Source of the DNA: a virus | Lineage: Duplodnaviria; Caudoviricetes | Length of the DNA: 36,525 nt | Direction: 5' to 3' (one strand) | IMG/VR virus record: IMGVR_UViG_3300031519_000083 | Location: 1-36,525 of that record | Shown: piece by piece, positions 973-36,525 of the stretch | Numbering within the stretch: the stretch's first letter is position 1 | How the letters are laid out: each line of letters opens with the position of its first letter | The notes under the pieces: generated by a model | What the model was told of the DNA's origin: nothing | Database searches by the model: none | Seen by the model: the letters and a program-made list of their open reading frames with translations, nothing else | Translations under genes and position numbers: made by a program

Positions 973-1359
973 TTATTTTTTAGTTGTTTTACTCCATCGG
1001 GCTCTTGTTCCTCTGATATCTACATGTGTAAATGTATTGTATATTCCAACTCCACCTAGTGTAAATGACTCATTTTTCATTAAATCATCTGTAATAGTAG
1101 CTATCTCGCTAGGGCTAAATTGTTTTGACTTAATGTCTGCGGCTTTACCTTTTAAATGTTGTGAATTTGTAGATCCACCGACGTCAGTATTATGTTCTTT
1201 ACAGCGATAAGCATTGGTTAGATCTAATCTACCTACAAAGTCTCTTAGAACCTGTAAATTGTCTGCTAATTCAATTATGTTTTTCTTTACAAACTCAGGC
1301 ATTTTACACCCACATTTGCATTCAAACTCTTCTAAGTTAAAATTATTTGTTAACTTCAT
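973..1359 (-). CDS. Peptidase M15A family Zn-peptidase, probable endolysin
   Basis: NFNLEEFECKCGC N-terminus, AYRC...HN...VGG, SQHLKGKAADI (SxHxxGxAxD) and FTHVDIRG motifs. Confidence 0.92.
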   Translation of the reverse strand: MKLTNNFNLEEFECKCGCKMPEFVKKNIIELADNLQVLRDFVGRLDLTNAYRCKEHNTDVGGSTNSQHLKGKAADIKSKQFSPSEIATITDDLMKNESFTLGGVGIYNTFTHVDIRGTRARWSKTTKK

Positions 1360-4300
1360 TAATATCCAGATATTTTTCCTTGGGGATTAACTGTTGGTCT
1401 TTTAATACCCGTTTTTTTCGCCTTAGATTTAGATTTAGTTTTTGATTTTTTCTCAGTCAATCCTAATTCCCACTCATTCCAACCCATTAGCAATGCTATT
1501 CTTTTATAAGTTGCAACCTCTGCATCTGAAGCAGCTTTTAGGTTATTTAACTTCTTTACAACTCTATCAAGCGGTATGTTTGTTGATGCGGAAACAACAT
1601 TACCACCTGCTAAAAACACTGGATTATCTAAACTAAAACCTTTAGATTTAATTTCATCTATATTCCAATCAAAGGCTCTACCTGCTGATTGCATTTTCTG
1701 TAATTTAGATGCAATAGGTGGTGATATTCTTACTACTTCTAAAATTTTATCTTTGTAATTAGAATTTTTCTTTTGTGATTCTTCGTAAAGCTTTATACTT
1801 GTATTTTTCACAACGGTAAATATAGCTCCATATACACCAGTACCTCTAGAAAGACCATCAACCATACCATTTATCGCTTTTGGTACTTTTTCATCTAAAA
1901 TACTTTTATCTTCTTCATCGTCTTCAAACATTAAAGCGAATAAAGCTTGTTGCATGTAGTTAAAAATAAGATTTTGCACAACACCGTAATATAATATCCT
2001 AGATAAATTAGTTTTTGCATCCCCTCGGCCATTCTTAAGATCGCTAGCTGATTTCTTTATTATACGTGCATATTGAGCCGGAGTGTTAGCAAAAGCTAGC
2101 ACAATACGCCCTAATGGTCCAGCTTGCTCCTGGCTAATTTTATCAGGTCTACTTGACTGCTGAGACTCTTCTGCTATCTCTCTAAAGTCTCGCATTGCTT
2201 GTTTATTTGCAGCTATAGGATTCATGCCTCCTTTCACTAAAGAATTAAGTCTATTCCTATAGAAAGTAGATCCACCAGATGCAATAGCAAAACTATCTGC
2301 TAACTGTGTAGGTGTAAAACCTAATTTAAGTAATTTATTAATAACACCTCTAACCCCACTCTCTTTAGCCACGTCAGCAATATCTTGTTCATTTACATTT
2401 ATCTTCAAGCCATCACGTCTTTCAACCAAGAAATCAGAGTTCCATAATGTTTTAAAATCACTCCAGAATTGAAGTTGATTAGCAAAAGCTTTACCAGCCG
2501 CTATAATATTATTGTCGCCAAAGTTTATAAAGTTAACTGCAGATATTAGCTGTAAAGTAGCAGATCTAGTGTTAAAGAACATAATAGCAGCCGTAGATCC
2601 ATTTATCCAGTCAGTGAAACGCTCCACCTGTTTATTACCAAAACCTCTGTTTCTACCACTCTTCATTCTTTTTAAAATATCCTTCATAGCTTCTTTATAA
2701 GACTCACCAAAAGCAGCTTCTAGCTTATTTAGATTTTTAGGAGAAAATATAATGTCTACATTTTGTTGCCATAATTCTAAATATTCTTTTCTACCAGTGG
2801 TATTTAAAGCCTCTAAAAGGTCAGTTGTAATAGTACCAGTGACCCATTTGTCCGAAGGTTTTACATAAGCTCTACCTTTATTAAGTTTCATTATTTCTTG
2901 AGCAAATAACTTTAATTTAGGATCAGATTCCACTAACTCAACTAACTCAGCAATATCTGCTTCAGATAAATCTGGTGTTTTTTCACCTATTTGTTCCCAT
3001 ATATATACGCGTACAGCTTGTTCTCTTGTAAAAAGACTACCTTTTACTTTTTTCTTAAGGTTTTTAGGTACAATTTTTAAATCTCTTTTTAAAGCTCTAA
3101 AGTCTCTACCTAAATTGTTTCTATCTCTAGTTATATTCTCAACTCCTCTAGCATAAGGATCTATTAAATTATCTTTATACCATTTCATTTGAGAATTACC
3201 AACACTACCTTCACCTAAAGTAGCATACAATAAACCCATAAAATCTTCTGCCGACGGAGGAATAAAGAAGTTAAACCTACCTTTTTTCTTACCCATTAAG
3301 CCGGCCTTAACACCTGCAATTGTTTCACTAGAAGCAATACCGGTTTTATTTTCTATTATATCATTAAACTCTTTATCAAGTTTAGGTGCTGCGTTTTTAG
3401 AGAATTTAAGTTCAGCTTCATTAATCTCGTCATCTAGCTCACCCATTCTATCTAAAACATCTTGATTTGTAAAATCACCTGTTAGCCTTTGTGACTCAGG
3501 TAACATGTTATTATTAGATTTTGCAGCTTTATTTACAGATTTGCTAAGTGAAATAAAAGGCTTTTTAATACTCTCTAATTCAGCCATTCTATCAGTATTA
3601 ACAACACTTACACCGTCTGTAATTCTTTCATCGTAAAAAATATCTATGTTTCTGGTGGTTTGTCCAGAAGAATTTATTATTTTTATAGTTTTTGTAGTTA
3701 CTTTTGGCGCTGTAGGTGACCTACCATTTTTACCAACTACTATTTCCTCCTTTATATAACTATCTTCGCTTAACGTTGTATGTGAAATCGTGCGTTTCGT
3801 AACAATATTACCTGTTCTTAAGTCTTTAACAGTGGATATTGATGAATCAAACACTCCATCAGTATATTTACTTTCAATTTTAGTAACAGCTCGCCCACCG
3901 TTATTCATTTTAGTGGGTTCATTTTTTAACCAAAAAGAAATTTTACCATCTTTAAAATCTTTTTGTTCAATAAGGCTTTTATCCGCATCGTAAAGCTTAA
4001 AATCACTTGTTCTGCTCATGAAATCACCTTCACCATATCCAGTAATATCAAAATTACCTTCATAATCAATCGAGCCAATTATCTTGTAGCCAGTATCTTT
4101 ATCTTTACCTAAGTCTACAGTAAGGTTGTCTGATGGTTTATCAAATCTATCCCACCACTGAACCTCATCACTTGTATCATCACCATTGTCATCAATTTCT
4201 ACAGCACCAGGATCTCCTGCGCCACCATCTCTAAGAGACAATAGTTTACCCTTTTGAAAAGCTATTTTATAACCGTAGCCAGTGGCATTTCGATTATACT

Positions 4301-7300
4301 GTTGCCAATGTGTCCATGCTATGTTCATTATGTTTTTAGGATCAACAGGTTTCATAACAGTCCATCTTCTCGCGTTAGGCTCAAATTTAACATATAGGTC
4401 GTCAAGCTTGTTCTTATTATTTTCTGCGAATACCTTAGCTTCTGATTCAGTTTTAAAGCTAGCAATTAATTTTTGTTTAGTCCTAGCTATTAAACACCAA
4501 GGATTAGCATTTTCACCCCAGTTGCTGTCAACTATACTTCTAACAGCTCTTTGGCCTTTTCTAGAATCTTCAACGTCATATACGGTTACACTATCTCCAA
4601 ATTCTTGCTTATTACTAAGTGCTGGCATGTTGTCAGGATTTACTTTTGACGCCTTAATTTCTTCAGTAAACTTGTTTATTAACTCATCTGGATTTGCATA
4701 AGCATACGGATCTATTTTATTTTTATTAGACAATCTAACAACCTCCTCTATTTTATAACCATCTTCAGGAAATCTAGTATAACCATTAACTGTATAATAT
4801 AATGCTAATTTCTTGTACTTAGGTTTTTTGTTTTCTGGAACATTTAACTTATCAGCCCAATCAAATAAGCTTTCAACTTGTTTAGGTATGTTTGCTAGAT
4901 CTGGTCTATTTTTCATTAAAATACTCTCGTACTCAGCTCTTTTTTTCTTAGAGAATTGTATTTCTAACAAAGAATTATGATTACTACCAGGTTGTAAGCC
5001 AAGATTGTTTATTATTTCTTGCTCTCTTACTACTCCTTCAATATTTTTACTAAACATTAAACTAGATTTACCAGCACCTAGATCGGCTTTAGCCTGATTA
5101 CTATCTAGTTTAGACCTACCAACAGTGTTGATAACATTGTCGATGTACATCTTAGTCAATCCAGTCAGTATGCTTCCAAACTCAGTTCTAGCTTCACCTT
5201 TAATAGGTATACTTAAAGTTCCTTTGTTTATTCCAATTAAGCTTTGTAGTTTAGCCACAGAGCTAGGTGATATATTACCTGTAAATTCAGACTTTAATTT
5301 ATAAACATCTGTCTGAGTAGTTTTACCAAGACTTCTTCCGTTTGGACTAGATATACCAGGAATTGCGCCATCTACTTTATCATAAAATATTGCTAAAACC
5401 TTAGGATTAATACCTATTGATCTTCCATAAGTATCTCTAGATACGTCTATAGTTTCACCCTGCTCATTTACAACTGTCTCTTTAGTAGCTATATTATAGT
5501 CTGGCATTGTTTTTATAAACTTTCTAACATCACTATCATTCTTAAACACGTTCTGCAGGGAATTAGCCTCTGAAGACCCACCGCTTTTATCGTATTTTAA
5601 TGTAGCATTACCTCTAGCTTTCTTACCGCTTATACCAAATATAGCCTCAGACACTTTGTCAAAGAATTTATTGTTTAAACTTTTGAAGTTAGGTCTTTCA
5701 TCTTCTTTTATATCTATTACGCTTTCTACAGCTTCTAGTATCGAAGGATCACTTATAGGACCAAAGCTTGTAGCTTTTATCATCTTCTGAGTAGAATCTT
5801 TTAAATCGCTAGGCTTGCTGTCGCTTCCATATAACGTATTAACATCACCTGACATTTCTTTAACAGATCCAACACCACCTGCTTCTACATCAAGACTTTT
5901 ATCAGCTATCTTTCTAAACTTTTCGTAAGTCTGCTGAGCCTTGGGTGCTATGTTATTATATACCCAGGTTGAAAACTTAGAATCTCCAGGTTTATAAGAC
6001 TCTATTATTCTAGGTAGAAATTCTCTTAAATAATCTTTAACTTCGTCTCTATCATAATCTCCTTTTCTAGTATCGTACTTTATAGCTCTTAAAGCCATGT
6101 TATCGAAAGACTCAACTAAATCAGCTTCAGCTTTTGCTTTTTCTTTGATAGAAGTATCTTTTGATTTTATAGTTTCTATTAAACCTTCGTTATCGTATAC
6201 TTTTTTAGGAGCTGATTTTTCTTTAGTTGAAGATTCTTTTTTAACACTAGGTTTTTTAGCTTGTCTTATTTTTAATTCTAAGTTAGATTTTTGAGCATCA
6301 AAGTCTCCTTCGTCCATCTCAAATTCTCTGTCTATTAAATCTTCTAGTTCAGTGTTAAGTTCTGAAACTGATTTAGATAAACTAACGCCGCTCACTTTAC
6401 CATCTCCATCTTTACCGGCAAGTGCTTTCAAAGATCCTTTAAAATTACCCTTACTGTAAGCCTTGTTGTAATCTTTTATAAAGTTTATAACCCCCTCAGC
6501 TTTATCGAATCTTATGTTTCTAAGGCCTAAGTCTTGAAAAATTCGTCTAAAGAAATCCTGTATTTTTGTTATACTAGACTCATTTAGTTTTACCTCTTTG
6601 TTAGTTACAGCCTCTGAGAATAAAGGAAGAATTTCTTCAAAGAACTTTTCAACAGTAATTTTATTATCAGTAGCATAGCTTTCTATACGTGCTACAATAC
6701 TTGAAGAGGATGAAGAGGATGCTAGTATTTCTTTTAAAAGCAACTCCCCAGCCTGTTGAACTAGCTCTGGTTTTGATGACATAGAAGCTTTTAGAAGTTT
6801 ATGTAAAAATTCATGTTGACCAGTTGTAACAACTCTATTACTAAGTGCAGAAGCTTTGTTTATAACTAAAATTTCTTTACCATCAGCATCCACTACAAAT
6901 GTTCCGTAAGAATCTTTAGTTTCTTTAGCGTACTCCTTAGATTGACCAACGCTTATTAAAAATTCTTCCATTTTATCATCGGCAGATCCATCTTGATCGT
7001 CCTCAAATATTTTGGTTTCATCTATTTTTTGACCAATAGAATTTAAAGACTTTGCAAAATTACTTACATCTTTATCAAATCTTTCAGTTATACTTCTTTT
7101 TATACTGCTATTTTCTATTTCACTATCAATTTCTTTAATTCTATCGTTTATAGGACCATGAAAAGAAGAGTCTGTGTTTTTCTTTTTCTCTATTAATTTC
7201 TTTTTCTGAATTAATAATTCTATCTGATCAGATGAAACGTCTTCTGGAGCCGTATTCATGACGCTAGCAACATCTCTAACAAACACTCTGGCTTTATTTA

Positions 7301-9512
7301 TATCTTCTATAAGGCTAGGATCTGTAGCTGTCTCTAGCATAGTTTTAAAGTATAAATCTGTAGACTTTAAGTTGTTAAATATATCTTTATATATTTGAGC
7401 TTTCTGAGCATTGTAAGTGTTTTTAACACCAGCAAGACCCATACCACCGCTAAGCATAAAAGTTCCAGCTATTAAGTTTATTTGCTCATCAACAAACTCA
7501 TTTTGCTTTAATGCGCCTAAGCCAAAAGCCATGTCTGTAATAATGTTCATTCCAAAAGTAACCTCTTCTTCGAGAAGTTCTTTAAACATATTTCCTGTGT
7601 ATGTTTTAACTGCTGCTTTAGTACCTTCTTTAGTAGTCAATCCTTTTAAAGAATTAAATAATGCGTTTTTTATTTCTTTACCAGCACCACCTTTTATAAA
7701 CTTATAATCAGGCATTATAGCTTGAACCAAACCTTCTGTAAAAGAAACAGTTGTAGCATATAAATCCCCAGCAGGACCACTTAAACCTTTTTTGTTTGCT
7801 TCTATAGAATTATTCAAAATAGTCATCCTAAAAGCAGCATCACTGGATATAATAAGGTTCTTCATGTTTTGAGCAGACTTTGTTACAGCTCCTGCTTTGG
7901 TATAATTTGAAAGCATTTTACCTAAACCCTCTCTATACCCTGTAAATTTACCTTGTTTTACATTTCTGATTATCTCAGCTGTAAAAGGAATCATATTAAA
8001 AGCTGTTTTACTCCATGCTCTAGCACTAAACTCCTTAAGGTTACCTTCGCCATCTGTGATGTTAAATTTTTCATCCTTAGAGTCTGGAACCACGTTAAAG
8101 TTTAATAAATCACCCCAAGTATCCCTCATAGAGTCAAAGCTACTATAAGTGTCATCATCCGTGAACAAGTCTCCAAATGCAGTTGTTACAAAAACAGGGA
8201 ATCCAACAACTGTTTGGCCAGCTAGTTTCACCATTTCTTGAGCAGTGCCTCCTACTTGATCAACAGCCCAATTAAAAACTCCATCACCGGAAAAAGCTTC
8301 TGTGTATTTTTTTACATCATCAGTTAACTTAAAGTTACTTTTCAAAGCCATTCTAGCTATATCTACACCCCATTGAGCGTTTATAACTTCTTGACTCTTA
8401 TTTAAAGACTCTTGCTTACCTTTATATCTATCAGAAGTTTGTTTAAACGTATCTTTTAGAGAGTTGTATTGTTTTAATAAACCATTATATTTATCTACAG
8501 TCTCTTGAGTGTAGCCAGTTGCAGGTTTATTGTTTTTTATAAGATTCATACTTCTAACTAAGGATGATTCTTGTCTTTTTAAATCACCAAAAACATCTTC
8601 AGTTTCTAGTTTTAAAGCATCGTATTCTTTAACTAATTCCTTACGTACTTCTAATATTTTAGGTATTCTGTATTTATTTATTAAAGCTTCCTTATCCTGC
8701 AAATTCATTTTACCTTGCGCTAGCTTCTGTAAAGTTCTAACGTCTTCACCTCCAGCAATAGCTCCTTCTAAACTGTCTTCAAGCTCTATTACCTGTGAAG
8801 GCACATCGGTCTTAGCATCGTTTATCCAGTTGCCAGAAATAGCTTGCAGTCCTTGTTTAAAAAGTCCTTCAGAAAAAGGAGTATCAAAAGTGTTACTCGT
8901 ATTTCCAGTGTCTTTTCTTAGTTGTTCTATAGCTTTATCTTTTAATTTAAAGTTATCATCAAACTTATATATTTGCTCTTTTTCAGCTTTAGCTTCTTCA
9001 TCAAATTTGTCTGACTGATCATCTATATATTGCCTAGCATCTTCCCAAGTATCAAACACATCACCTTCGAGACCGTCTTCCGCATATTTAGTTGCTAATT
9101 TAATTAATTTTTGTTTAGCTTCAGGTGTCTTCTTTAATGTCTTCTTTATTTCTTCATAATCTGTTATAACAACTCCAGAGCTATTTTTTCTAAGCAGGGT
9201 TTCACCCATTGGACCTTTTTCAATATAGTCATCATCAGTTAAATCCATTATAGAACCAGGTTTATTACCTGTTCTTTGCTCGTAATTGAAACTAGCCTGC
9301 TCGTTTGACAGTGGCTCCGAAGAACCATTTTCCGATGCTGAATCCATAGCTGTTACACTTGCATCCTCCGTTGCAACAGCTTCTGTCTTTACTGGTTTAA
9401 CTTCTTCTTCAATTAGCACAGCTCCTTCAAATTGTTCAGAACTCTTAAAATCTTCAAGTAAATTTTCAGGTACATTAATTAATTTACCTGATTTCAATCT
9501 ATAGTATGGCAT
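1359..9512 (-). CDS. Giant virion ejection/cargo 'polyvalent' protein, 2717 aa (zincin, sigma-like, PcfJ-like WC and helical C-terminal modules)
   Basis: Last and largest gene after the tail genes, as for podophage ejection proteins. HEFLH at residues 900-904 with downstream EE959-960; sigma region-2-like segment at ~1108-1222; NPWCL around W1672; hydrophobic helices in the N- and C-terminal thirds. Confidence 0.8.
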   Translation of the reverse strand: MPYYRLKSGKLINVPENLLEDFKSSEQFEGAVLIEEEVKPVKTEAVATEDASVTAMDSASENGSSEPLSNEQASFNYEQRTGNKPGSIMDLTDDDYIEKGPMGETLLRKNSSGVVITDYEEIKKTLKKTPEAKQKLIKLATKYAEDGLEGDVFDTWEDARQYIDDQSDKFDEEAKAEKEQIYKFDDNFKLKDKAIEQLRKDTGNTSNTFDTPFSEGLFKQGLQAISGNWINDAKTDVPSQVIELEDSLEGAIAGGEDVRTLQKLAQGKMNLQDKEALINKYRIPKILEVRKELVKEYDALKLETEDVFGDLKRQESSLVRSMNLIKNNKPATGYTQETVDKYNGLLKQYNSLKDTFKQTSDRYKGKQESLNKSQEVINAQWGVDIARMALKSNFKLTDDVKKYTEAFSGDGVFNWAVDQVGGTAQEMVKLAGQTVVGFPVFVTTAFGDLFTDDDTYSSFDSMRDTWGDLLNFNVVPDSKDEKFNITDGEGNLKEFSARAWSKTAFNMIPFTAEIIRNVKQGKFTGYREGLGKMLSNYTKAGAVTKSAQNMKNLIISSDAAFRMTILNNSIEANKKGLSGPAGDLYATTVSFTEGLVQAIMPDYKFIKGGAGKEIKNALFNSLKGLTTKEGTKAAVKTYTGNMFKELLEEEVTFGMNIITDMAFGLGALKQNEFVDEQINLIAGTFMLSGGMGLAGVKNTYNAQKAQIYKDIFNNLKSTDLYFKTMLETATDPSLIEDINKARVFVRDVASVMNTAPEDVSSDQIELLIQKKKLIEKKKNTDSSFHGPINDRIKEIDSEIENSSIKRSITERFDKDVSNFAKSLNSIGQKIDETKIFEDDQDGSADDKMEEFLISVGQSKEYAKETKDSYGTFVVDADGKEILVINKASALSNRVVTTGQHEFLHKLLKASMSSKPELVQQAGELLLKEILASSSSSSSIVARIESYATDNKITVEKFFEEILPLFSEAVTNKEVKLNESSITKIQDFFRRIFQDLGLRNIRFDKAEGVINFIKDYNKAYSKGNFKGSLKALAGKDGDGKVSGVSLSKSVSELNTELEDLIDREFEMDEGDFDAQKSNLELKIRQAKKPSVKKESSTKEKSAPKKVYDNEGLIETIKSKDTSIKEKAKAEADLVESFDNMALRAIKYDTRKGDYDRDEVKDYLREFLPRIIESYKPGDSKFSTWVYNNIAPKAQQTYEKFRKIADKSLDVEAGGVGSVKEMSGDVNTLYGSDSKPSDLKDSTQKMIKATSFGPISDPSILEAVESVIDIKEDERPNFKSLNNKFFDKVSEAIFGISGKKARGNATLKYDKSGGSSEANSLQNVFKNDSDVRKFIKTMPDYNIATKETVVNEQGETIDVSRDTYGRSIGINPKVLAIFYDKVDGAIPGISSPNGRSLGKTTQTDVYKLKSEFTGNISPSSVAKLQSLIGINKGTLSIPIKGEARTEFGSILTGLTKMYIDNVINTVGRSKLDSNQAKADLGAGKSSLMFSKNIEGVVREQEIINNLGLQPGSNHNSLLEIQFSKKKRAEYESILMKNRPDLANIPKQVESLFDWADKLNVPENKKPKYKKLALYYTVNGYTRFPEDGYKIEEVVRLSNKNKIDPYAYANPDELINKFTEEIKASKVNPDNMPALSNKQEFGDSVTVYDVEDSRKGQRAVRSIVDSNWGENANPWCLIARTKQKLIASFKTESEAKVFAENNKNKLDDLYVKFEPNARRWTVMKPVDPKNIMNIAWTHWQQYNRNATGYGYKIAFQKGKLLSLRDGGAGDPGAVEIDDNGDDTSDEVQWWDRFDKPSDNLTVDLGKDKDTGYKIIGSIDYEGNFDITGYGEGDFMSRTSDFKLYDADKSLIEQKDFKDGKISFWLKNEPTKMNNGGRAVTKIESKYTDGVFDSSISTVKDLRTGNIVTKRTISHTTLSEDSYIKEEIVVGKNGRSPTAPKVTTKTIKIINSSGQTTRNIDIFYDERITDGVSVVNTDRMAELESIKKPFISLSKSVNKAAKSNNNMLPESQRLTGDFTNQDVLDRMGELDDEINEAELKFSKNAAPKLDKEFNDIIENKTGIASSETIAGVKAGLMGKKKGRFNFFIPPSAEDFMGLLYATLGEGSVGNSQMKWYKDNLIDPYARGVENITRDRNNLGRDFRALKRDLKIVPKNLKKKVKGSLFTREQAVRVYIWEQIGEKTPDLSEADIAELVELVESDPKLKLFAQEIMKLNKGRAYVKPSDKWVTGTITTDLLEALNTTGRKEYLELWQQNVDIIFSPKNLNKLEAAFGESYKEAMKDILKRMKSGRNRGFGNKQVERFTDWINGSTAAIMFFNTRSATLQLISAVNFINFGDNNIIAAGKAFANQLQFWSDFKTLWNSDFLVERRDGLKINVNEQDIADVAKESGVRGVINKLLKLGFTPTQLADSFAIASGGSTFYRNRLNSLVKGGMNPIAANKQAMRDFREIAEESQQSSRPDKISQEQAGPLGRIVLAFANTPAQYARIIKKSASDLKNGRGDAKTNLSRILYYGVVQNLIFNYMQQALFALMFEDDEEDKSILDEKVPKAINGMVDGLSRGTGVYGAIFTVVKNTSIKLYEESQKKNSNYKDKILEVVRISPPIASKLQKMQSAGRAFDWNIDEIKSKGFSLDNPVFLAGGNVVSASTNIPLDRVVKKLNNLKAASDAEVATYKRIALLMGWNEWELGLTEKKSKTKSKSKAKKTGIKRPTVNPQGKISGY

Positions 9513-9527
9513 ATTGTTTTACTTTTA

Positions 9528-11378
9528 TTAACTTCTTTTTGTAACTTGATTTCCTCTTTTTTGGTCAACTTTAAAAACCTCAGCTTCGTTTTTTTCTTTT
9601 TCAAGCGCTTCAGCTTCTGCTTTTGCTTTAGCATCAGCTTTTTCTTTTGCTTTTGCTTTTGCTTCGTTTTTCTTTTTATTTAATTTAGAAGATCTATAGC
9701 TAGTATCACTTCTTAAAGCGTCTTCATATCCTTTTTGTTCTTTTTTTGATAGAATAGATGTACCTTTAGTTCTTTCCGAAGCTCTTAAAAGATTTAGATA
9801 AAACCTGTTTCTATCTGTAGAGTCGTTCATGTTGTAAACTACGTCTTTTGTAAGTTGAGGATTATCTTTATCGTAACCACTAACAGACTCTTTACCAATT
9901 GTTATTGTATTTTTTTCTCGATTAAATATTGGTTCTACACCAACATATTCTTGATACATACCAATAGGGTTTTTCTTCACTTCATTATAAAAATCTTTAC
10001 CACCGTTAACTGGTGGTTCTGGTGTTTCTGCTTCACTACTTAATCCTTTGGTATAAACTTCTTTTCCAGATGAAAAATAAACTGTATCCCCTTTTTCTAA
10101 AGGAATACCTTCTTTTTTATATTCTAAAACGTCTTTAGATGTAGCTAGCCTAGTACCCATTGCGCCGTTTTTAGCAGAAACTATTTTCTCTAAATCTTTT
10201 TGAAATCTTTGCTCTTCTAAAAAAGCTATTTTTTCAGAAATTTTAGAGCTTGCCCAATCAGATTGTTCTATAGTGCCCCAATCAAGATTACCTTGAATGT
10301 ACTTCATCTGCTCGTCAAGAGGCATAGCTAAAACACCTTTTGCAGCGGCAGTTAATTGAGAACTGTAAGCGATATTATTTCTTAATATGTCAGGATTAAA
10401 GTGTGACTCTGGGCGCCTAGCAACACCCCCATCAACATCTCTATTGTTGTATATAATATTTGTATTAAAACCTTTATCAGTAATATCGCCATTTTCTTTA
10501 GTAAAACCAGATGAAACTAAAATTTCGTCTGTTTGTTCGCCGGGATTTATAGTTGTAATTAAACTTCCGTTTTTACCCCATGTATCCATATCTCTAGACC
10601 AAGAAAAAGTACCAGTTGTAGCTCCGTCTTCTATCCACAAGTCTTCCTCACTTAGCAATCCAGAATCTTTCCATAGCTTAAAAGTTTCACTATTAAGGTC
10701 TACCTCGGCATCAACACGCATCATATCTAAATAACTATCACCTTTATCAAAACTAGTTCTTTCGTACTTTTTTGTAGCTTTAACACCAGGTATTTTCATT
10801 TCTAAAAGAGTGTTAGCTACTATTTGGCTTTTAGTGTTTTCAGGACCTACTCCTTGGTAATCAAATTTATTACCAATATCTCCACTAATACTATTAGCTA
10901 AAGGATCTAGACCTGCTTTTATATTAGTACCTCTATCTATCATTCTTTTTTTATAGCCTTGGAAATTACTTACTATCTGGCTATATGCAGCTACTGTATC
11001 TTTATCTAAACTCATATTGGAATTTATTTGAGTTTCCGCACTTATAGCGCCTATAGTATATTTCTTACCATTAACTACTACAGAGTTTTTTGTGCCATTT
11101 TCGGCCATGTCTTTAGCTTCTATAATGAATTCCTCTGCTATAGTTTTATCTTTTACAGTTTTACTAATAGTGTTAATGCTATCATATGTTTTTTGAGCAG
11201 TTTTATTCCAAACTAATTGATTAGCCTCTTTTCTTTTTTTAGTAACCTCATTAGCTTTCCTTTTTACCGCAGCGTACTTATCTAGCCCTGAAGCTACATC
11301 TCCACCAAAATTAGCTATGGCTTTAGCCCATATTTCTCCTGACCTATCAACTATTATCTGCGGATTTCTATAACTCAT
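9528..11378 (-). CDS. Probable internal virion/ejection (cargo) protein, 616 aa
   Basis: Lies between the small and giant cargo genes; helical N-terminus; K/A/E low-complexity C-terminus. Function inferred from synteny only. Confidence 0.6.
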   Translation of the reverse strand: MSYRNPQIIVDRSGEIWAKAIANFGGDVASGLDKYAAVKRKANEVTKKRKEANQLVWNKTAQKTYDSINTISKTVKDKTIAEEFIIEAKDMAENGTKNSVVVNGKKYTIGAISAETQINSNMSLDKDTVAAYSQIVSNFQGYKKRMIDRGTNIKAGLDPLANSISGDIGNKFDYQGVGPENTKSQIVANTLLEMKIPGVKATKKYERTSFDKGDSYLDMMRVDAEVDLNSETFKLWKDSGLLSEEDLWIEDGATTGTFSWSRDMDTWGKNGSLITTINPGEQTDEILVSSGFTKENGDITDKGFNTNIIYNNRDVDGGVARRPESHFNPDILRNNIAYSSQLTAAAKGVLAMPLDEQMKYIQGNLDWGTIEQSDWASSKISEKIAFLEEQRFQKDLEKIVSAKNGAMGTRLATSKDVLEYKKEGIPLEKGDTVYFSSGKEVYTKGLSSEAETPEPPVNGGKDFYNEVKKNPIGMYQEYVGVEPIFNREKNTITIGKESVSGYDKDNPQLTKDVVYNMNDSTDRNRFYLNLLRASERTKGTSILSKKEQKGYEDALRSDTSYRSSKLNKKKNEAKAKAKEKADAKAKAEAEALEKEKNEAEVFKVDQKRGNQVTKRS

Positions 11379-12354
11379 TACTTATTTTTTTAAATTCAAC
11401 ATCTAGCTTAGAATAATCAACTCTATCATAGCCGTCTTTATGTACTACTACTGCTTTAGTAGGTATTTCATCTGACATAACCCCCTGATAAACGCCCTTG
11501 CCATTAATGTTATCTATATATTCAAAACTATATATATTTAATCCAGAGGGTGATTCACCTATTTTTTCTATGTTTTTCTTTAATCTTTTGTCTGATGCTG
11601 TAGATTGGGCGGTTGGAGTATTCATAGCGCCTAATGCACCAACACCCGAAGATACTATGTTCCCTACAGCGCTCATACCGCCTGCTACAATCGCTGCTTG
11701 ATTTTGATTAGCTTGAGCTATGTCTTGTTGAGATTGTGTAACCACCCCTGAAGCTCTATCTAAATCAGCATTAAGTCTATTTTCTTCTTGTTGAAAAACA
11801 TATTGATTTCCTGCAGCATCTAAACCTTGCAATCTTTGAGCTTCGCTAAAAGCTACTGATTGCATTCTTTGTTCTTCAGCCTGCTTTCTACTTTGTAATA
11901 CCTGGTCCCCTTGAGCTTTGAGTTTTTCGTTTTGAGCCTCTTGGCTTTCTATAGAGGCAGATACTCCTTTTTTACTCTGTAAAGCGGCTTGCGCTAAAGC
12001 TGTAGCTCCCCCTGCGCTTGCACCAGTGGCTCTTAATGTATCTAATGTATTAGCTAAAGCTATATCAGTCTGTTCCATTTGTATTTCAGCTGCTTGGGTA
12101 GCCACTCCAAGTTCAGCATAGGGATTAGACATTGTTCCACTAAGATTTTTTGCCATTGAAGACAAATCCGTAGCTCCTCTGTATGGGTTTAAAATGCTTT
12201 GTCTTGATCGCTTTAGTTCTTCTACTTTAGCCTCTGCGGTTCTTTTATCACCCCGAGCCGCATTTGCTGCTTTTTTTTGTTGATTAGCCGCATACATTGT
12301 AGTCCCTACGGTGGCTAGCGCTCCAACTCCTATTGCTACTGCTACAAATGCCAT
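11368..12354 (-). CDS. Ejection/DNA-transfer (pilot-like) protein with C-terminal peptidase S74 chaperone domain
   Basis: Gly/Ala-rich hydrophobic N-terminus, Q/A-rich coiled coil, a second hydrophobic segment (AAIVAGGMSAVGNIVSSGVGALG), then SDKRLKKNI...GVMSDEI...VDYSKL from residue 254. Confidence 0.78.
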   Translation of the reverse strand: MAFVAVAIGVGALATVGTTMYAANQQKKAANAARGDKRTAEAKVEELKRSRQSILNPYRGATDLSSMAKNLSGTMSNPYAELGVATQAAEIQMEQTDIALANTLDTLRATGASAGGATALAQAALQSKKGVSASIESQEAQNEKLKAQGDQVLQSRKQAEEQRMQSVAFSEAQRLQGLDAAGNQYVFQQEENRLNADLDRASGVVTQSQQDIAQANQNQAAIVAGGMSAVGNIVSSGVGALGAMNTPTAQSTASDKRLKKNIEKIGESPSGLNIYSFEYIDNINGKGVYQGVMSDEIPTKAVVVHKDGYDRVDYSKLDVEFKKISNEL

Positions 12355-28757: not shown

Positions 28758-29032
28758 TACTTAGATCTACCTTCAGCAAACCCTTTAAAAGCTTTTTCTT
28801 CTTTAGCTTCTTTAGGTTTCTCGTTAAGAATATTGTCTTCTTCATCTATACGTTTAAGTATTTCAAAAGCATCAAATATTGCTAATTTTTTAGTGGCAGC
28901 TGCGTTTTTAAGCTTGTCCGCTGTTAAGTCATCATCTGAATCTACAATAAGTTCTTTAGCTACTTTAACTAATTCCGCTATCGCGATGTGCCCAGCTTGG
29001 ATTATACTCAACTTGGTTTCCTTGGTGTTCAT
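28757..29032 (-). CDS. Probable terminase small subunit
   Basis: 91-aa helical protein whose stop overlaps the terL start (TAATG); ends in GFAEGRSK. Assigned by position and size. Confidence 0.6.
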   Translation of the reverse strand: MNTKETKLSIIQAGHIAIAELVKVAKELIVDSDDDLTADKLKNAAATKKLAIFDAFEILKRIDEEDNILNEKPKEAKEEKAFKGFAEGRSK

Positions 29033-29582
29033 ATTTGATTACAATATCATTAGATTTCATACAGAAAACTCTTTGCTCGTCGACGATAAAATCCCATTCG
29101 CTGTTAGGAGTAAACCCTACAACATCTCCTGGGTTGATTTTAAGCGCTTCTAAGGACTTATTACCATACTTTAGTATACCAATAAGCTTTTGCTCTTTAT
29201 CGTTCGTTAGAATGTCTTCATTTTTTAGAGGCATTACAAAACATCTGTCTCCAAATGATTTCCAATCCTCTGTATTTTTATACAAGTATATCTGATCTAC
29301 AGCACAGAAATATAAATCATCTTTAAAATATGATCTACTATTTTTTTTCACACCTTTCATGTCGTAAAATACTCTAAAAACATTGTGGTGTATTAATACT
29401 ATATCTCCTTTTTGTATACTTGTTTTAAATGCTTTTGGCGTTTCTACTACAACTGCTAAATTGTTAACAGATTTAAAACTTTCTATTTTAGTATTTAAAA
29501 CCAAAGTTTTGTCACCAATCTTTATCTCATTTTCATATCTATCACCAAGTGGCTTGATGATGAAGTCGTACAAGCTCTTCAT
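28965..29582 (-). CDS. Tandem GroES-like (two Cpn10 domains) co-chaperonin-like protein
   Basis: Domain 1: FIIKP...AVVVETP...IQKGDIVLIHH. Domain 2 (from ~residue 107): KSFGDRCFVMP...IGILKYGN...INPGDVVGF...FIVDEQRVFCMKSNDIV, which parallels GroES PLHDRVIV...VKVGDIVIF...IDNEEVLIMSESDIL. Confidence 0.7.
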   Translation of the reverse strand: MKSLYDFIIKPLGDRYENEIKIGDKTLVLNTKIESFKSVNNLAVVVETPKAFKTSIQKGDIVLIHHNVFRVFYDMKGVKKNSRSYFKDDLYFCAVDQIYLYKNTEDWKSFGDRCFVMPLKNEDILTNDKEQKLIGILKYGNKSLEALKINPGDVVGFTPNSEWDFIVDEQRVFCMKSNDIVIKYEHQGNQVEYNPSWAHRDSGIS

Positions 29583-30677: not shown

Positions 30678-31076
30678 TTATTTATTTTTAATTATTGATT
30701 TTGCCTTTTCCCAAGTTCTTCCCACGAAATAAGCCCCGTAAACGGTAACCAATAATGTTTGAAATATTGGTATGTATTCTTTTGCTATTTTAAAATCGCC
30801 TATATTACCATCTGTAAAAGCTAATAAGCTAAATACAAATGTTAAAAACACTAGAACTAAAGGCCTAATGTTTTTAGCTAACCAACTGTCAGAATTCATA
30901 TCTGCATTCCAACGGTCTGTTACTTGCTGCTGAGCATTATTGTCAGCTTCTTCAAGAATGATTTGAACTTGTTTTTTTATTTCAAGCTTCTCTTCTTCAG
31001 TTGTTGTAAGCTTATCAATGACGTTACCAATCTCTTTAATAACGCCACCTGTAAGCCATGCAAATATTTTTTTCAT
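30678..31076 (-). CDS. Holin (GTA-type 3TM holin family)
   Basis: IDKLTTTEEEK, RWNADMNSDSWLAKNIRP, two hydrophobic helices and YFVGRTWEK. Confidence 0.8.
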   Translation of the reverse strand: MKKIFAWLTGGVIKEIGNVIDKLTTTEEEKLEIKKQVQIILEEADNNAQQQVTDRWNADMNSDSWLAKNIRPLVLVFLTFVFSLLAFTDGNIGDFKIAKEYIPIFQTLLVTVYGAYFVGRTWEKAKSIIKNK

Positions 31077-31091
31077 TTATAATTTCTACGT

Positions 31092-32036
31092 TTAGTAATC
31101 ACTATAATAATGATTATCAAATTGCCCTCTTACTACAACGTTACCATCTTTTCCTCTTTTAAAAGAATTTTTTCTATATTTACTCGGTTCACTCAACCCT
31201 TTTATTTTATTTTCTTGATCCTCTGGTTTAACAAACGCCATAGAGCTAGTACTACTTTTACTGTTTTTTCTAGTAACCCTATTGTTAACAATATAAGTAG
31301 AATCCCTGTTTCTCTGCGTTTTAGCTGCAGCTAAATGTCTTGCATCAAAAGTTTCTGGAGTTCTGTCTTTAAGAATTCCCTTCCAACTTTTTTCATTAAC
31401 TCTGTTATCTGATATTAGATTTCTTTCTGATTCAGAAAGATTCGGGTTTTTTTTAGTGATAAATCCTGGTTTTCCTTTTTTTTCATCTGTTCGTTGCATT
31501 AAAGCAGTTTTAGTAGACATATCTACTAAACCTTTAGGCTTAAGAGGAGTTCCTTTTGAGCCTTCTTTCGTCTTTTTAGCAAAATCCTTTAAATATTGTC
31601 CCCCACTTTTTTCATCCATCCTTCCTGCTGTGTCTAGTATATTTGCGCCAGTTCTAGGATTTCTTATAGTAGCTGTACTCGTTACAAAAGGAAGACTGTT
31701 ACTTCCTCTAAATCCTCCTGATCTTAATTCTTGGGAGTCTAAGCTAGATTTTGCGCCAGCAGTGTTTTTTCTATAACTGCCTTCTAATTTAGACCTATCG
31801 CTGTAAACATTTTTTTGTTGGTAGTTAAGCTCGTCTCCAAGATTTCCAGTTGAGCTTTGATTTTGATAAGCTCTTCTGCTTCCACTCATTTGCTCATCTT
31901 CGTTGTACGCGCTGGCAGGTATGTCCTCGCCAAGGCCGTACGCTCTTGGTTTTGGTGGTTTTTGTAATAAAGCGGAAGGAACTCCTGCGCCTGTTTTTGG
32001 CATTGGACCACGTCCTGCATTTTGTTTGTAAGCCAT
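31092..32036 (-). CDS. Hypothetical basic, low-complexity protein (possible internal head protein)
   Basis: 314 aa; K/S/G/R-rich; MAYKQ N-terminus. Confidence 0.65.
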   Translation of the reverse strand: MAYKQNAGRGPMPKTGAGVPSALLQKPPKPRAYGLGEDIPASAYNEDEQMSGSRRAYQNQSSTGNLGDELNYQQKNVYSDRSKLEGSYRKNTAGAKSSLDSQELRSGGFRGSNSLPFVTSTATIRNPRTGANILDTAGRMDEKSGGQYLKDFAKKTKEGSKGTPLKPKGLVDMSTKTALMQRTDEKKGKPGFITKKNPNLSESERNLISDNRVNEKSWKGILKDRTPETFDARHLAAAKTQRNRDSTYIVNNRVTRKNSKSSTSSMAFVKPEDQENKIKGLSEPSKYRKNSFKRGKDGNVVVRGQFDNHYYSDY

Positions 32037-32442: not shown

Positions 32443-32455
32443 TATTATTACGTGT
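32443..32455 (-). promoter_or_regulatory. Candidate phage promoter motif ACACGTAATAATA
   Basis: Copy of AyAnGTAAywwTA overlapping the zincin stop codon, 26 nt upstream of the ATG at 32416. Confidence 0.45.
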
Positions 32456-32798
32456 ATTTCAGCTTATTTGCTTTATAAGCTTCTACTTCCCAAGGCGAGT
32501 TTTTATCCCCGTCATTCATAGCAGATCTTGGATATTTTTTACCTTTCCAATAAACGAATTTATCATCATAATCTAGATCATCTCTATATTTACCCGATTC
32601 ATCTTTTTCAAGTCCCATTTGCTGTAAATGAACTCTTTCGTGTCTAACTACATCTTCTTGCTCTAGTGGACTTAAGTTTTTATCTACTATTATAGAACCA
32701 TTTTTATTAGCTTGACCCATAACACCTTCGTCTGTATCCATTTGGTATATAGGAGTGTTGTCAATAGATAACTTACCCATTTTCATTTTATAAGCCAT
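32448..32798 (-). CDS. Small zincin-like metallopeptidase
   Basis: VVRHERVHLQQ (HExxH) plus SPWEVEAY (third-ligand Glu motif). Confidence 0.8.
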   Translation of the reverse strand: MAYKMKMGKLSIDNTPIYQMDTDEGVMGQANKNGSIIVDKNLSPLEQEDVVRHERVHLQQMGLEKDESGKYRDDLDYDDKFVYWKGKKYPRSAMNDGDKNSPWEVEAYKANKLKYT

Positions 32799-33060: not shown

Positions 33061-33429
33061 TTAGGCAGTCCAAGCATTTTGTGTATATGTCACATATGTT
33101 TGAGGCGTAGTTACTACCTGTCTACCAGAGCCAGTTTGTGCTGCTGGAGCTTGTAATACAAGCACAGGCGATCCTACAGTAGATACAATACCTCCTGGAT
33201 TAGCTCCCATAGCTTTGTAGATTGCTTCTACTACAGAGTTATTAGCTACACCCGCTGCTAATGCTACAGAGTGAGTGATAACCCAGTTTGCAGTTGCGCT
33301 AGTGTTTAATTGAATAGTTGTTGCAGTTCCACCTCCGTTAGTTGTTACCGCTGCGATTTGATCAATCGCAATTAATACTGTTGGCTGGTTTGCAGCTGCA
33401 GTACAGTTAAATTTAATAAATTTTGCCAT
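33061..33429 (-). CDS. Probable abundant structural (capsid decoration-like) protein
   Basis: Start reassigned to MAKFIKF (ATG 33429, preceded by AAAA). A/T/V/G-rich, ANPGG motif, followed by its own terminator. Confidence 0.65.
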   Translation of the reverse strand: MAKFIKFNCTAAANQPTVLIAIDQIAAVTTNGGGTATTIQLNTSATANWVITHSVALAAGVANNSVVEAIYKAMGANPGGIVSTVGSPVLVLQAPAAQTGSGRQVVTTPQTYVTYTQNAWTA

Positions 33430-33432
33430 TTT

Positions 33433-33458
33433 TGTTAGTGTTAGTGTTAAGTTAGTGT
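33433..33458. repeat. Short tandem repeat (GTTAGT-like x4)
   Basis: tgttagtgttagtgttaagttagtgt; on the minus strand ACACTAACTTAACACTAACACTAACA, immediately upstream of the ATG at 33429. Confidence 0.7.
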
Positions 33459-33499
33459 GTGGCATTTTGAGTTTTATAACAGATCTCTACTGTTTTTTT

Positions 33500-33793: not shown

Positions 33794-34075
33794 TTAACAT
33801 TTCCATCTTCTTCTTGCAGCTAATCCTCTCTCACCTTTCCATCCTTTGGACCTAGCGCAAAAAGATTTTCTTCTGCCGGCAGCTTTACTACCTTTTTTAA
33901 CTTTACCTGTTACAGCTGTTTTAAGTTTACTTCCAGGGTTTTGTTTCCTGTACTTTTTAACACCAGCAGATGTCATACCAGCTCCTTCTCCAGTTGTTCG
34001 AAAGTTTCGACCTTTTCCTTTAGTTGTTTTACGAACTCTTAGGAAAGGTGATGAGTCTGGCTGAATATATGGCAT
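33794..34075 (-). CDS. Highly basic small phage protein (DUF6321-like)
   Basis: GAGMT..GV..YR..NPGSKLKTAVT...RRKSFCAR...ARRRWKC signature. Confidence 0.8.
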   Translation of the reverse strand: MPYIQPDSSPFLRVRKTTKGKGRNFRTTGEGAGMTSAGVKKYRKQNPGSKLKTAVTGKVKKGSKAAGRRKSFCARSKGWKGERGLAARRRWKC

Positions 34076-34689: not shown

Positions 34690-35136
34690 TTATCTACTTT
34701 TATCTTTGTTAACATTATCTATAGCCACTGTCAATACTTTATCAGTATATGAATTACCAGCTATAATTTTATTGAATCTTTTAGTTGTTGGTATATCTTC
34801 TTGTCCAAGCATAATTCTATACATCCTAGCTATAAGTTGTTTACACTTAAAACTTACTTTGTATATATTATATTTCTGAGTAGTTCTGTTTCTATTACGC
34901 CACACAACTATCCAGCCTTCTTGCAATAATCTATTCCATCTTCTGTTGTCCCAACTATAAGAATAACTACCCATTTTGAAATCTTGTTTTGTGAAAAACT
35001 CCATACAATCAAAGTAGATTAACAATTCTAAATCAGCATCATTAAGATCGTTGTTCTTACAAGCCCATCTTCTTATTATTCTGTAGTGCTTTAGCAGGTT
35101 TAAATCTTTTATATCCCTTGCATCTAGCTTTCTCAT
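34690..35136 (-). CDS. Hypothetical protein, possible winged-helix DNA-binding protein
   Basis: ATGA overlap with groES. LNDADLELLIYF...RLLQEGWIV...IYKVSFKCKQLI resembles MarR-type wHTH spacing. Confidence 0.6.
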   Translation of the reverse strand: MRKLDARDIKDLNLLKHYRIIRRWACKNNDLNDADLELLIYFDCMEFFTKQDFKMGSYSYSWDNRRWNRLLQEGWIVVWRNRNRTTQKYNIYKVSFKCKQLIARMYRIMLGQEDIPTTKRFNKIIAGNSYTDKVLTVAIDNVNKDKSR

Positions 35137-35399
35137 AGAACAACAACTACATCTTGTAATTTTATAACATGATAAGTTTCTTTATTTACTTCAATCTTAT
35201 GTCCCGCATGCCTATCAAAAAATATTTTACCATTATCCTCTAAGCCAGTTGCAGCAGCTTCATCACCTAGTGAAACTATAGTAGCTTCAGTGTATCTAAT
35301 ATCTTCTCTTTGAGTTTCTGCAAGTAAGAGACCACCTTTTGTAATGGTAGTCCCTTCTTTTAGTTTTCTTATAATTATATTTCTACCTACTGCTTTCAT
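35133..35399 (-). CDS. groES: Co-chaperonin GroES
   Basis: MKAVGRNIII...TTITKGGLLL (mobile loop)...ATIVSLG...IFFDRHAG..I...YHVIKLQDVV. Confidence 0.9.
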   Translation of the reverse strand: MKAVGRNIIIRKLKEGTTITKGGLLLAETQREDIRYTEATIVSLGDEAAATGLEDNGKIFFDRHAGHKIEVNKETYHVIKLQDVVVVL

Positions 35400-36525
35400 C
35401 GATTCTCAAATTATTGATTACACAATCTGTTGATAAAATAGTAGTAGCTACTGAAGCTGCATTTACTAACGCGCTTTTTGTAACAAGTAAGGGATCGATA
35501 ATACCTGATTTAATCATATTAACCATTTTCCCTGTAACCACATTAAGACCTTTTCCTTTACCTTTTGGAAATTCATAGTTGTTTATACCAGCGTTTTCTA
35601 ATATTGTTTTAAAAGGCGCTCTAACGGCTTCTAGCAATAATGTCTCACCCTCTGATTTAGCAACTATTTTTTCCGATGCATTTAATAAAGCAATTCCTCC
35701 ACCAGGTACAATACCTTCTTTGATTGCTGCTTTAGTAGCGCAGATAGCATCTTCAACTCTATCTGTTTTTTCTTTTAATTCAATATCAGAGTTAGCACCA
35801 ACTTTAACGATAGCTATTTTAGCGGCTAGCATTGCTAGTCTTTTCTCTAACTTGATTATTTGATAAGCTTGTAAATTATCTTTAGATAATTCATCTTTAA
35901 TTCCTTTGATTATGTCAAGTATCTCTTCAGATGCTTCACCAACCTGTATTACAGTCTCTTCGTGAGAAGTAACACTTTTTAAGCAAGATCCTAGGTGTTC
36001 TACTTGGATCATATCCATATCGTCTCCTAAGTCTTCATTTATAATTGTAGCACCTGTTAGTAGAGATAAGTCATCTAAGACTTCTTTCTTACTAATTCCA
36101 AATGTAGGTGCATCGATAACGTTTACCTTTATGTTACCCTTCATTTTGTTCATAGCTAGAGCAGATAAAACACCTTGATCTAAATCGCCTATAATAAGCA
36201 AAGGTTTATTGTTTTTTATTACGTACTCTAACACTGATTGTATTTGTCTGATAGTATCTACTGGAGATTCTATTAATAATACTAAAGGGTTTTCAAGTTC
36301 AGCGGTTTTTGACTGAAGGTTTGTAACGAAATGAGAGTTTGTCAGTCCTTTATTATACTGAACACCATCAACGACTTCAACTTCTGTTTTACCATTAGCC
36401 GACGTTTCCATCATTACTACACCTGTGTTATCCACTGCTCTAAAAGCATCTGCTATAATTTTACCAAGTTCAGGATCGTTGTTAGTAGATATTGTAGCTA
36501 TTTGATCTATCATGTTACCTTTCAC
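35383..36525 (-). CDS. groEL: Chaperonin GroEL (5' end outside the window)
   Basis: QIATISTNND..LG..IA.A, VIDAP.FG, IVKVGA.S.IELKEK.DRVEDA..AT.AA..EGIVPGGG, GIIDP..VTKSAL.NAASVA...L.T. Confidence 0.97.
   Translation of the reverse strand: MKGNMIDQIATISTNNDPELGKIIADAFRAVDNTGVVMMETSANGKTEVEVVDGVQYNKGLTNSHFVTNLQSKTAELENPLVLLIESPVDTIRQIQSVLEYVIKNNKPLLIIGDLDQGVLSALAMNKMKGNIKVNVIDAPTFGISKKEVLDDLSLLTGATIINEDLGDDMDMIQVEHLGSCLKSVTSHEETVIQVGEASEEILDIIKGIKDELSKDNLQAYQIIKLEKRLAMLAAKIAIVKVGANSDIELKEKTDRVEDAICATKAAIKEGIVPGGGIALLNASEKIVAKSEGETLLLEAVRAPFKTILENAGINNYEFPKGKGKGLNVVTGKMVNMIKSGIIDPLLVTKSALVNAASVATTILSTDCVINNLRIDESSR

Follow-up and report, generated by a model that had tools for sequence, protein, structure and literature searches.

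A giant protein of 2717 amino acids (aa), encoded in the 36,525-nucleotide tailed-phage record IMGVR_UViG_3300031519_000083 (Duplodnaviria; Caudoviricetes; this whole stretch is the window below), carries five copies of a short peptide with a hydrophobic residue, any residue, Phe or Leu, then Ser-Lys. Comparison with related proteins identifies this peptide, here called the tag, as a conserved element at the joints where relatives insert, drop and reorder modules. As far as sequence can tell, the tags are likely to be cut sites for a phage zinc protease; that the cutting would be done by the zincin-like domain built into the giant itself is close to an even bet, and just short of one. The gene and its five tags are:

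1359..9512, minus strand: the giant protein, last gene of the virion module, downstream of the terminase, portal, capsid and muzzle genes
6369..6386, minus strand: tag 1, VSLSKS (aa 1043-1048; L1045 at 6372-6380), ending the conserved zincin half
5043..5060, minus strand: tag 2, LMFSKN (aa 1485-1490; F1487 at 5046-5054), with the best profile score, 16.6 bits
4944..4961, minus strand: tag 3, IQFSKK (aa 1518-1523; F1520 at 4947-4955), where the WC cassette starts
3537..3554, minus strand: tag 4, ISLSKS (aa 1987-1992; L1989 at 3540-3548), where the WC cassette ends
3393..3410, minus strand: tag 5, LKFSKN (aa 2035-2040; F2037 at 3396-3404), starting the conserved C-terminal domain

All five [FL]SK motifs listed in the original prediction, which was made from this sequence by itself, are present, and the protein has no further [FL]SK. 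The tag is a real, family-wide signal, established by the relatives rather than by this protein alone. Within the giant, five [FL]SK stand against 2.85 expected by chance (5000 shuffles, p=0.16); when a hydrophobic residue two positions earlier is also required, five stand against 0.76 (p=0.0016), for a pattern picked after seeing the matches. A blind search for the best-repeated 6-mer in the central region of the giant did not pick the tag (score 48, against a maximum of 52 in 10 shuffles). The tag is absent from the other 27 open reading frames (ORFs) of the window, bar VAFSEA (score 8.0) in a 328-aa protein and one word scoring 6.3.

Relatives were fetched as 83 loci by zincin plus C-terminal region, with 80 more by a C-terminal profile, and reduced to 99 representatives at 70% zincin identity; the four with truncated C termini were left out of trees. 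These 99 contain 242 tags: at least three in 46 proteins, two in 16, one in 22 and none in 15. Their consensus reads [VIAL]-K-[FY]-S-[KLR]-[SA], in which Ser is invariant and usually follows Phe or Tyr. When the pattern of the original prediction was held fixed, 48 dereplicated relatives gave 51 matches downstream of the zincin (16.4 expected) and 8 upstream of it (7.3 expected); neighbouring ORFs showed a mild excess (25 versus 14.4), gone with the refined pattern (2 versus 4.6). A trained profile applied to 57 held-out proteins found 109 tags in the central region against 13.9 expected (maximum 25 in 30 shuffles), an eightfold enrichment; the held-out proteins are kin, and the counts are not fully independent. 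Elsewhere in the same proteins it found 7 against 11.1 in the N-terminal part, none against 1.7 in the zincin and 2 against 8.4 in the C-terminal domain. Tags are thus restricted to the part that separates zincin and C-terminal domain, being not enriched, or depleted, in the conserved parts. At the anchor of tag 5, a relaxed form of the tag occurs in 65 of the 99 representatives, where 15.5 are expected.

The original prediction also placed the motifs at module boundaries and suggested that they may mark points of cassette exchange between related phages. Both ideas are borne out by alignment ends, tag-to-tag insertions and reordered cassettes in relatives; the exchange points are not DNA repeats. 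The segments that the tags delimit in the giant are:

6420..7085, minus strand: zincin-like domain, aa 810-1031, with HEFLH (aa 900-904) at 6801-6815 and the third ligand, E960, at 6633-6635
5052..6377, minus strand: module A, aa 1046-1487, 48.8 kDa if cut, in which aa 1109-1240 are weakly like sigma-70 region 2
4953..5051, minus strand: spacer of 33 aa (aa 1488-1520), a tag-to-tag insertion relative to L009
3546..4952, minus strand: WC cassette, aa 1521-1989, 53.4 kDa if cut, with a conserved NPWCL block and of no known family
3402..3545, minus strand: conserved spacer of 48 aa (aa 1990-2037), with tags on both sides in L101, L107, L112 and L119
1362..3401, minus strand: conserved C-terminal domain, predicted to be all-helical, aa 2038-2717 (predicted local distance difference test, pLDDT, 84.6; predicted template modelling score, pTM, 0.85)

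In alignments of the homologues (cited by L numbers), variable cassettes begin and end at tags, and alignment ends pile up there. For most relatives, similarity to the giant ends at about aa 1020-1060 (tag 1) and restarts at about 2017-2049 (tag 5). All-against-all comparison of the central regions places 16.1% of alignment ends at most 20 aa from an internal tag, versus 4.4% for random sites (64 tags; a value that high did not arise in 2000 random sets); alignments cross a tag in 33% of cases, versus 61% for random sites. The excess persists with the tags masked (15.0% versus 4.3%) and at 78 held-out tags (11.4% versus 5.0%).

Individual comparisons show the same joints. Against the nearest relative, L004, seven successive segments are 99, 96, 99, 100, 68, 92 and 98% identical, the 68% segment being the WC cassette; this cassette begins at a tag in the giant, L009, L119 and L291. 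The order of cassettes C3 and C0 varies, with C3 ahead in L006 and C0 ahead in L022, L041 and L049. A zeta-toxin-like kinase cassette lies between tags in L048 and L050, and zeta/AAA kinases are the only Pfam families above cut-off in 44 central regions, in 3 of the 44. Spacers of 26-48 aa bounded by two tags occur in the family. Among the neighbouring ORFs no stand-alone counterpart of a cassette was found, bar one fragment of a frameshifted giant. Cluster C1 (12 members of about 200 aa) is the cassette most often found in last place; in the central regions of L007, L033, L066, L069 and L070 it matches DUF2608 weakly, below cut-off. The giant frame of L164 (4731-11626) breaks a few codons after an IQFSKN tag, which may be an assembly error; L114, L022 and L048 have no such coincidence.

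What is conserved at the joints is the peptide. The tag Ser is encoded by AGY in 129 cases and by TCN in 113, and within a protein the codons of different tags coincide about as often as expected (91 of 329, versus 98); since both Ser codon families are used and synonymous sites match no more often than chance, selection acts on the peptide, not on the DNA, and a DNA-repeat origin of the tags was rejected. The possibility that tags are scars of DNA recombination, or chance words with no function in the protein, would agree with their coincidence with swap points and with the weak statistics in this one protein; it is very improbable in view of the codon usage, the eightfold held-out enrichment and the presence of the same word in distant lineages. 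Moreover, the tags of one protein resemble one another: they agree in the residue after Ser in 80 of 148 pairs (47 expected) and in the next residue in 52 (21 expected), and xxFSE[TS] occurs six times in L149. When each C-terminal cluster is represented by a single protein and a clade that spells its tags KFSL is dropped, the agreement is 58 of 102 versus 43.8 (p=0.005) and, for the next residue, 41 versus 14.6. Unrelated joints are kept alike by something reading the peptide.

One way to understand such a peptide is as the site of an enzyme. In the proposed scheme the giant would be packed in the head and injected, and its own zincin would cut at the tags, freeing the modules after packaging or injection; the protease would read a core of hydrophobic-K-F/Y-S. 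Cutting before Ser would yield pieces of about 116, 49, 4, 53, 5 and 76 kDa, each new N terminus being Ser. N-terminal Phe, Leu, Lys and Arg are bacterial N-end-rule degradation signals; cuts at the neighbouring bonds would expose one of these four. Recombinants at tags would survive because any cassette that brings a tag is released correctly.

Cleavage might instead need no enzyme. Nup98- and ZU5-type proteins cleave themselves at an F|S site by an N-to-O acyl shift, a reaction that needs a strained folded context. The fixed Ser of the tag, usually after Phe or Tyr, would suit such a shift; the flanks, however, are unrelated between tags, no His precedes the Phe, and tag 1 lies in a low-confidence linker (aa 1035-1052, pLDDT<50 in the model of aa 810-1076). 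Self-cleavage at the tag is scarcely credible.

The built-in zincin has the features of a working peptidase. Its model (aa 810-1076; mean pLDDT 83.9) has three strands, a helix with HExxH and a later helix with E960. The ligands and catalytic residue (H, E, H, E) are invariant in 48 aligned sequences, which were themselves selected on the zincin. The catalytic Glu and the Glu of the third ligand are present in every one of 95 representatives, the first His in 90 of them; the domain is therefore very likely an active enzyme. The model resembles HExxH peptidases such as PPEP-2 and lethal factor weakly (Z 4.0-5.0), and a Foldseek search gave no match at E<=0.001. The idea that relatives with no HExxH have no zincin was rejected: nine full-length ones have EExxH, QExxH or HExxxH, and no member of the family is truly without the domain. 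The EExxH zincins form a clade (L095, L096, L103, L104, L131, L157 and L158; about aa 970-1150 of the giant) that keeps the catalytic and third-ligand Glu.

The window also encodes a second candidate reader of the tag:

32448..32798, minus strand: small stand-alone zincin, 116 aa, HERVH...PWEVEA, a near-core gene

Its HExxH is invariant and its downstream Glu conserved. It occurs in 19 of 21 records at least 90% complete and in 41 of the 60 records searched, and it is fused to the C terminus of the giant in 5 of 167 giant sequences (L033, L044, L057, L059 and L154), as well as in L230 and L232. Among solved structures it best matches the small protein MJ1213 (E=0.086).

If a particular enzyme reads the tags, their spelling might be expected to follow that enzyme through the family. 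Among 41 genomes with all three markers, spelling correlates with the C-terminal domain (r=0.39, p<0.001), and not with the built-in zincin (r=-0.02) or the small one (r=-0.11). Over 80 proteins the values are 0.135 for the C-terminal domain and 0.075 for the built-in zincin (p=0.12); with the KFSL clade removed they are 0.025 and 0.084. In the zincin-selected subset only, they are 0.275 and 0.207 (p=0.01; weak). Internal tags considered separately give r=0.19 with the C-terminal domain, and 0.13 without the KFSL clade. A near-zero correlation between the zincin and C-terminal trees in pooled data was set aside as partly a selection artefact, being 0.24-0.31 within each set. The spelling signal is weak and names no reader. 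Proteins in which the zincin has been exchanged point the same way: among 16 pairs whose C-terminal domains are nearly identical, the zincins are very different in 9, and 5 of these 9 keep similar tags (L112/L108, L131/L069, L122/L120, L116/L068 and L126/L132); in one of the nine the tags are of different form, and in three one partner has no strict tag. Since divergent zincins sit on the same tags, either the swapped zincins share one core specificity or the reader lies elsewhere.

Several of these results weigh against cleavage by the built-in zincin: the missing correlation among 41 genomes and its low value among 80 proteins, and the five exchanged zincins on unchanged tags. To these are added observations from the family and from other phages. 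Among the 99 representatives, 15 combine a zincin that looks intact with the absence of any strict tag; most of these have degenerate words with Ser at the anchor positions, and only two of the 15 yielded a repeated word better than 10 shuffles in a blind search (L160, [AG]KQSKR; L159, borderline). EExxH relatives keep their tags. Zincins are present in elemoE and MW202828, where [FY]S[RKL] is at chance, and in P1 DdrB, which is reported to be processed (PMC5512222) and has no [FY]S[RKL]. In the other direction, phi38:1, L375 and L377 have no HExxH, yet carry [VI][VT]FS[KR] at the start of the C-terminal part; L376, a phi38:1-type giant, has a zincin of about 230 aa (at about aa 700-920), a fresh insertion that is absent from the 95%-identical L375 and is not tag-flanked. 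The virion RNA polymerase (vRNAP) of N4, with such a domain, is described as packaged uncut (PMC5512222). What survives of the original claim that the upstream zincin reads the tags is the enzyme, with both Glu kept throughout; its tie to the tags, like the cleavage itself and its timing after injection, is conjectural: spelling tracks the zincin tree poorly if at all, C-terminal halves that are nearly identical and carry the same tags are joined to very divergent zincins, and a second zincin gene is present. A conserved, broad zincin specificity would give the same lack of covariation. It would be premature to take the built-in zincin for the tag's reader.

A second perspective has another enzyme cut the tags in trans, either the small zincin (32448-32798) or a protease of the host, while the built-in zincin acts on the cell wall or on host proteins. 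The small zincin, with its conserved active-site motif, near-core distribution and occasional fusion to the giant, is a candidate agent, and exchange of built-in zincins over unchanged tags fits; peptidoglycan has been suggested as the substrate of such domains for phi24B (10.64898/2026.04.10.717836) and for phi14:2 (10.1101/2020.03.07.982082). Spelling does not follow the small zincin tree, however, and that gene was not found in five GenBank phage records, including tag-bearing phi24B, by an insensitive search. If one host protease were responsible, it would need to do so in Bacteroidota, Proteobacteria and Bacillus alike, and the protein-private spellings would be left unexplained. Cleavage in trans is on balance unlikely.

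A third perspective is that the tags are never cut: they would be docking strands read during packing or tail threading by the C-terminal domain, a chaperone or the ejection channel, and would mark where each module unfolds or refolds. Here the correlation of spelling with the C-terminal domain (the best of the three at n=41), the FS[KR] word at the start of the C-terminal part in zincin-less phi38:1-type proteins, the uncut N4 vRNAP and the encoding of GroEL and GroES in the window all find a place, as does the partial unfolding that Crassvirus cargo must undergo for tail passage (PMC10172136). The correlation falls to 0.025 over all tags without one clade, however, and may be plain linkage; the phi38:1-type word is within a conserved block and may be coincidence; and the two-tag spacers of 26-48 aa, with the depletion of tags inside conserved domains, suit cut sites better. 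Docking is a doubtful account, and cleavage by a phage zinc protease is still the likely one.

The modules themselves resemble little that is known. That module A is sigma-like, as the original prediction labelled it, receives weak support: aa 1109-1240 match a solved sigma factor at profile E=0.011, with three sigma factors among 14 solved matches, an Atlas feature score of 0.92, and a Pfam match (E=0.019) in 1 of 19 members. The WC cassette has no Pfam match and no usable Atlas match, and a homologue search returned five proteins without names. The model of the C-terminal domain has 70 matches at E<=0.001 in a viral library, several named for polyvalent domains (ART-PolyVal, MuF-C, LPD); compared with solved structures it has no clear match, and none with Z>=8. 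Its predicted fold appears common to other phage polyvalent proteins.

Because of these fold matches, giants of the LPD38/39 type were examined. Among tripeptides, FSR ranks second in enrichment in 14 of these proteins (28 versus 6.0 expected), and [FY]S[RKL] occurs 89 times in 20 (46.6 expected). Eight cultured-phage proteins contain 15 such words, of which 5 lie at most 45 aa after a Pfam domain (0.84 expected) and 2 inside one. A further 59 dereplicated prophage giants were drawn from GTDB; 70 of 80 loci were read, and the other 10 were dropped, most with the match at the locus edge. The word stands just before the C-terminal helical domain in 17 of 58 prophage giants (2.5 expected). LPD38-type prophage giants have 67 words between the first zincin and the C-terminal domain (26.7 expected), 41 upstream of the zincin (35.1 expected) and 25 inside the C-terminal domain (35.2 expected): the polarity of the tag is that of the window family. 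Zincin-less Pony and L456 have no tag, and a search for zincin-less relatives of Pony's giant found none. A tag at module seams is probably widespread beyond the family, to judge from these counts, although 28 of the 42 giants that have a zincin and at least 900 aa upstream are without the junction word, which speaks against its generality.

Tentatively, and with somewhat less than an even chance of being right, a broader scheme may be proposed: hydrophobic-x-[FY]-S-[KRL] would be a widespread signal for cutting the ejection polyproteins of phages as far apart as flavobacterial podophages and the phages of enterobacteria, Vibrio and Bacillus. The part of the protein from zincin to C-terminal domain would then act as a plug-in rack for effectors, and the signal would be recognised by interchangeable zinc proteases that share a conserved specificity. 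If so, the sequence by itself would suffice to place effector boundaries. Independently of its reader, the tag marks the edges of unannotated cargo modules, such as the sigma-like module and the WC cassette, that profile libraries miss.

The genomic setting suits an injected protein. The minus strand of the 36.5-kb window carries nearly all genes. PHROG matches identify the terminase (6681), portal (6547) and capsid (13704), and a crassvirus muzzle domain is next in order. The capsid shares 37-51% identity with its counterparts in Flavobacterium elemo phages, Maribacter phage Panino, Cellulophaga phi38:1 and MW202828; the virion genes of these phages are ordered much as in the window, with a giant gene last. 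From this identity and gene order we infer a Bacteroidota host and a short tail. The terminal giant gene of elemoE_6-9C and phi38:1, annotated 'structural', has the same position as the window giant. Gene position and annotated relatives suggest that the giant is an injected cargo (polyvalent) protein packed in the head. The giant itself has no Pfam or PHROG match, and no tblastn match in 50,697 phage records.

Other genes of the window are listed here for completeness. A Peptidase M15 endolysin (973-1359, minus strand) directly follows the giant gene; a holin-like gene lies far upstream (30678-31076, minus strand). GroES and GroEL are phage-encoded (35133-36525 and 28965-29582, both minus strand), and a GroES-like gene precedes the terminase, as in elemo phages and phi38:1. 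The 328-aa protein before the giant (11368-12354, minus strand) has a weak C-terminal match to the Peptidase_S74 chaperone (E=0.0025, below cut-off). Upstream of the terminase is a cluster of small genes whose products start alike (31092-32036, 32448-32798, 33061-33465 and 33794-34075, all minus strand): MAYK, MPYI, and MAKF for 33061-33465 if the second Met is used; the giant starts MPYY. An M[APS][FY][KT] start is found in 75 of 850 ORFs of related loci. This common start is possibly a head-targeting leader.

Similar giants are known from Elemovirus, Callevirus phi38:1 and Panino, whose capsid proteins are 37-50% identical to that of the window: N-terminal parts of some family members align with them, and the elemoE giant has a zincin matching that of the window family (E=2e-8). 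They differ in that the C-terminal domain is unmatched, tags are at chance in elemoE and Panino, and the small zincin was not found. Crassvirus cargo (phi14:2 gp65-67; crAss001 gp47/49/50) likewise includes large injected proteins with a zincin-like domain (10.1101/2020.03.07.982082 and PMC13434306), and the window shares the crAss muzzle domain. The conserved D[FY]DxD motif of the Crassvirus virion RNA polymerase is not a feature of the window family: it is scattered over 9 of 99 representatives, and the giant has only an unconserved DYDRD at aa 1152. Unlike the Crassvirus cargo block and N4 vRNAP, the cargo of the window family is a variable string of small modules.

The cultured LPD38/39-type ejection giants (phi24B gp48, Bacillus phage Dartukuta, Pseudoalteromonas phage Y3, Shewanella phage Y11, Vibrio phage douglas 12A4 and D67) are alike in having [FY]S[RKL] tags at joints and HExxH or HExxxH domains upstream. 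They differ in spelling (FSR/YSR, not FSK); the window giant has no Pfam LPD38 match, and the two kinds of C-terminal domain show no profile similarity (probability 0.11). The phi24B giant has been found in the virion, and peptidoglycan is its suggested protease substrate (10.64898/2026.04.10.717836). No description of the tag was found in the literature covered, which left out most subscription papers and the supplements of Iyer et al. 2017 and of the phi24B preprint.

A close precedent is the class of polyvalent proteins defined by Iyer et al. (2017, PMC5512222), with which the window family shares a giant late-gene protein, an HExxH...E domain, several unlike domains differing between relatives, and zeta-toxin-like kinase cassettes in some relatives. 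The window zincin has the three-stranded sheet, HExxH helix and downstream Glu of their MPTase (fold matches weak, Z 4.0-5.0); the giant differs in having no Pfam LPD, ART or MuF domain. That such a protease cuts polyvalent proteins into units has been a proposal since that paper, whose main text, as far as accessible, names no cut sites and does not use the word 'linker'. In the window family a tag is mapped to the swap points, and what is new is a set of exact candidate bonds, predicted fragment sizes and cultured phages with a like tag whose hosts are non-pathogenic, which make a direct test possible.

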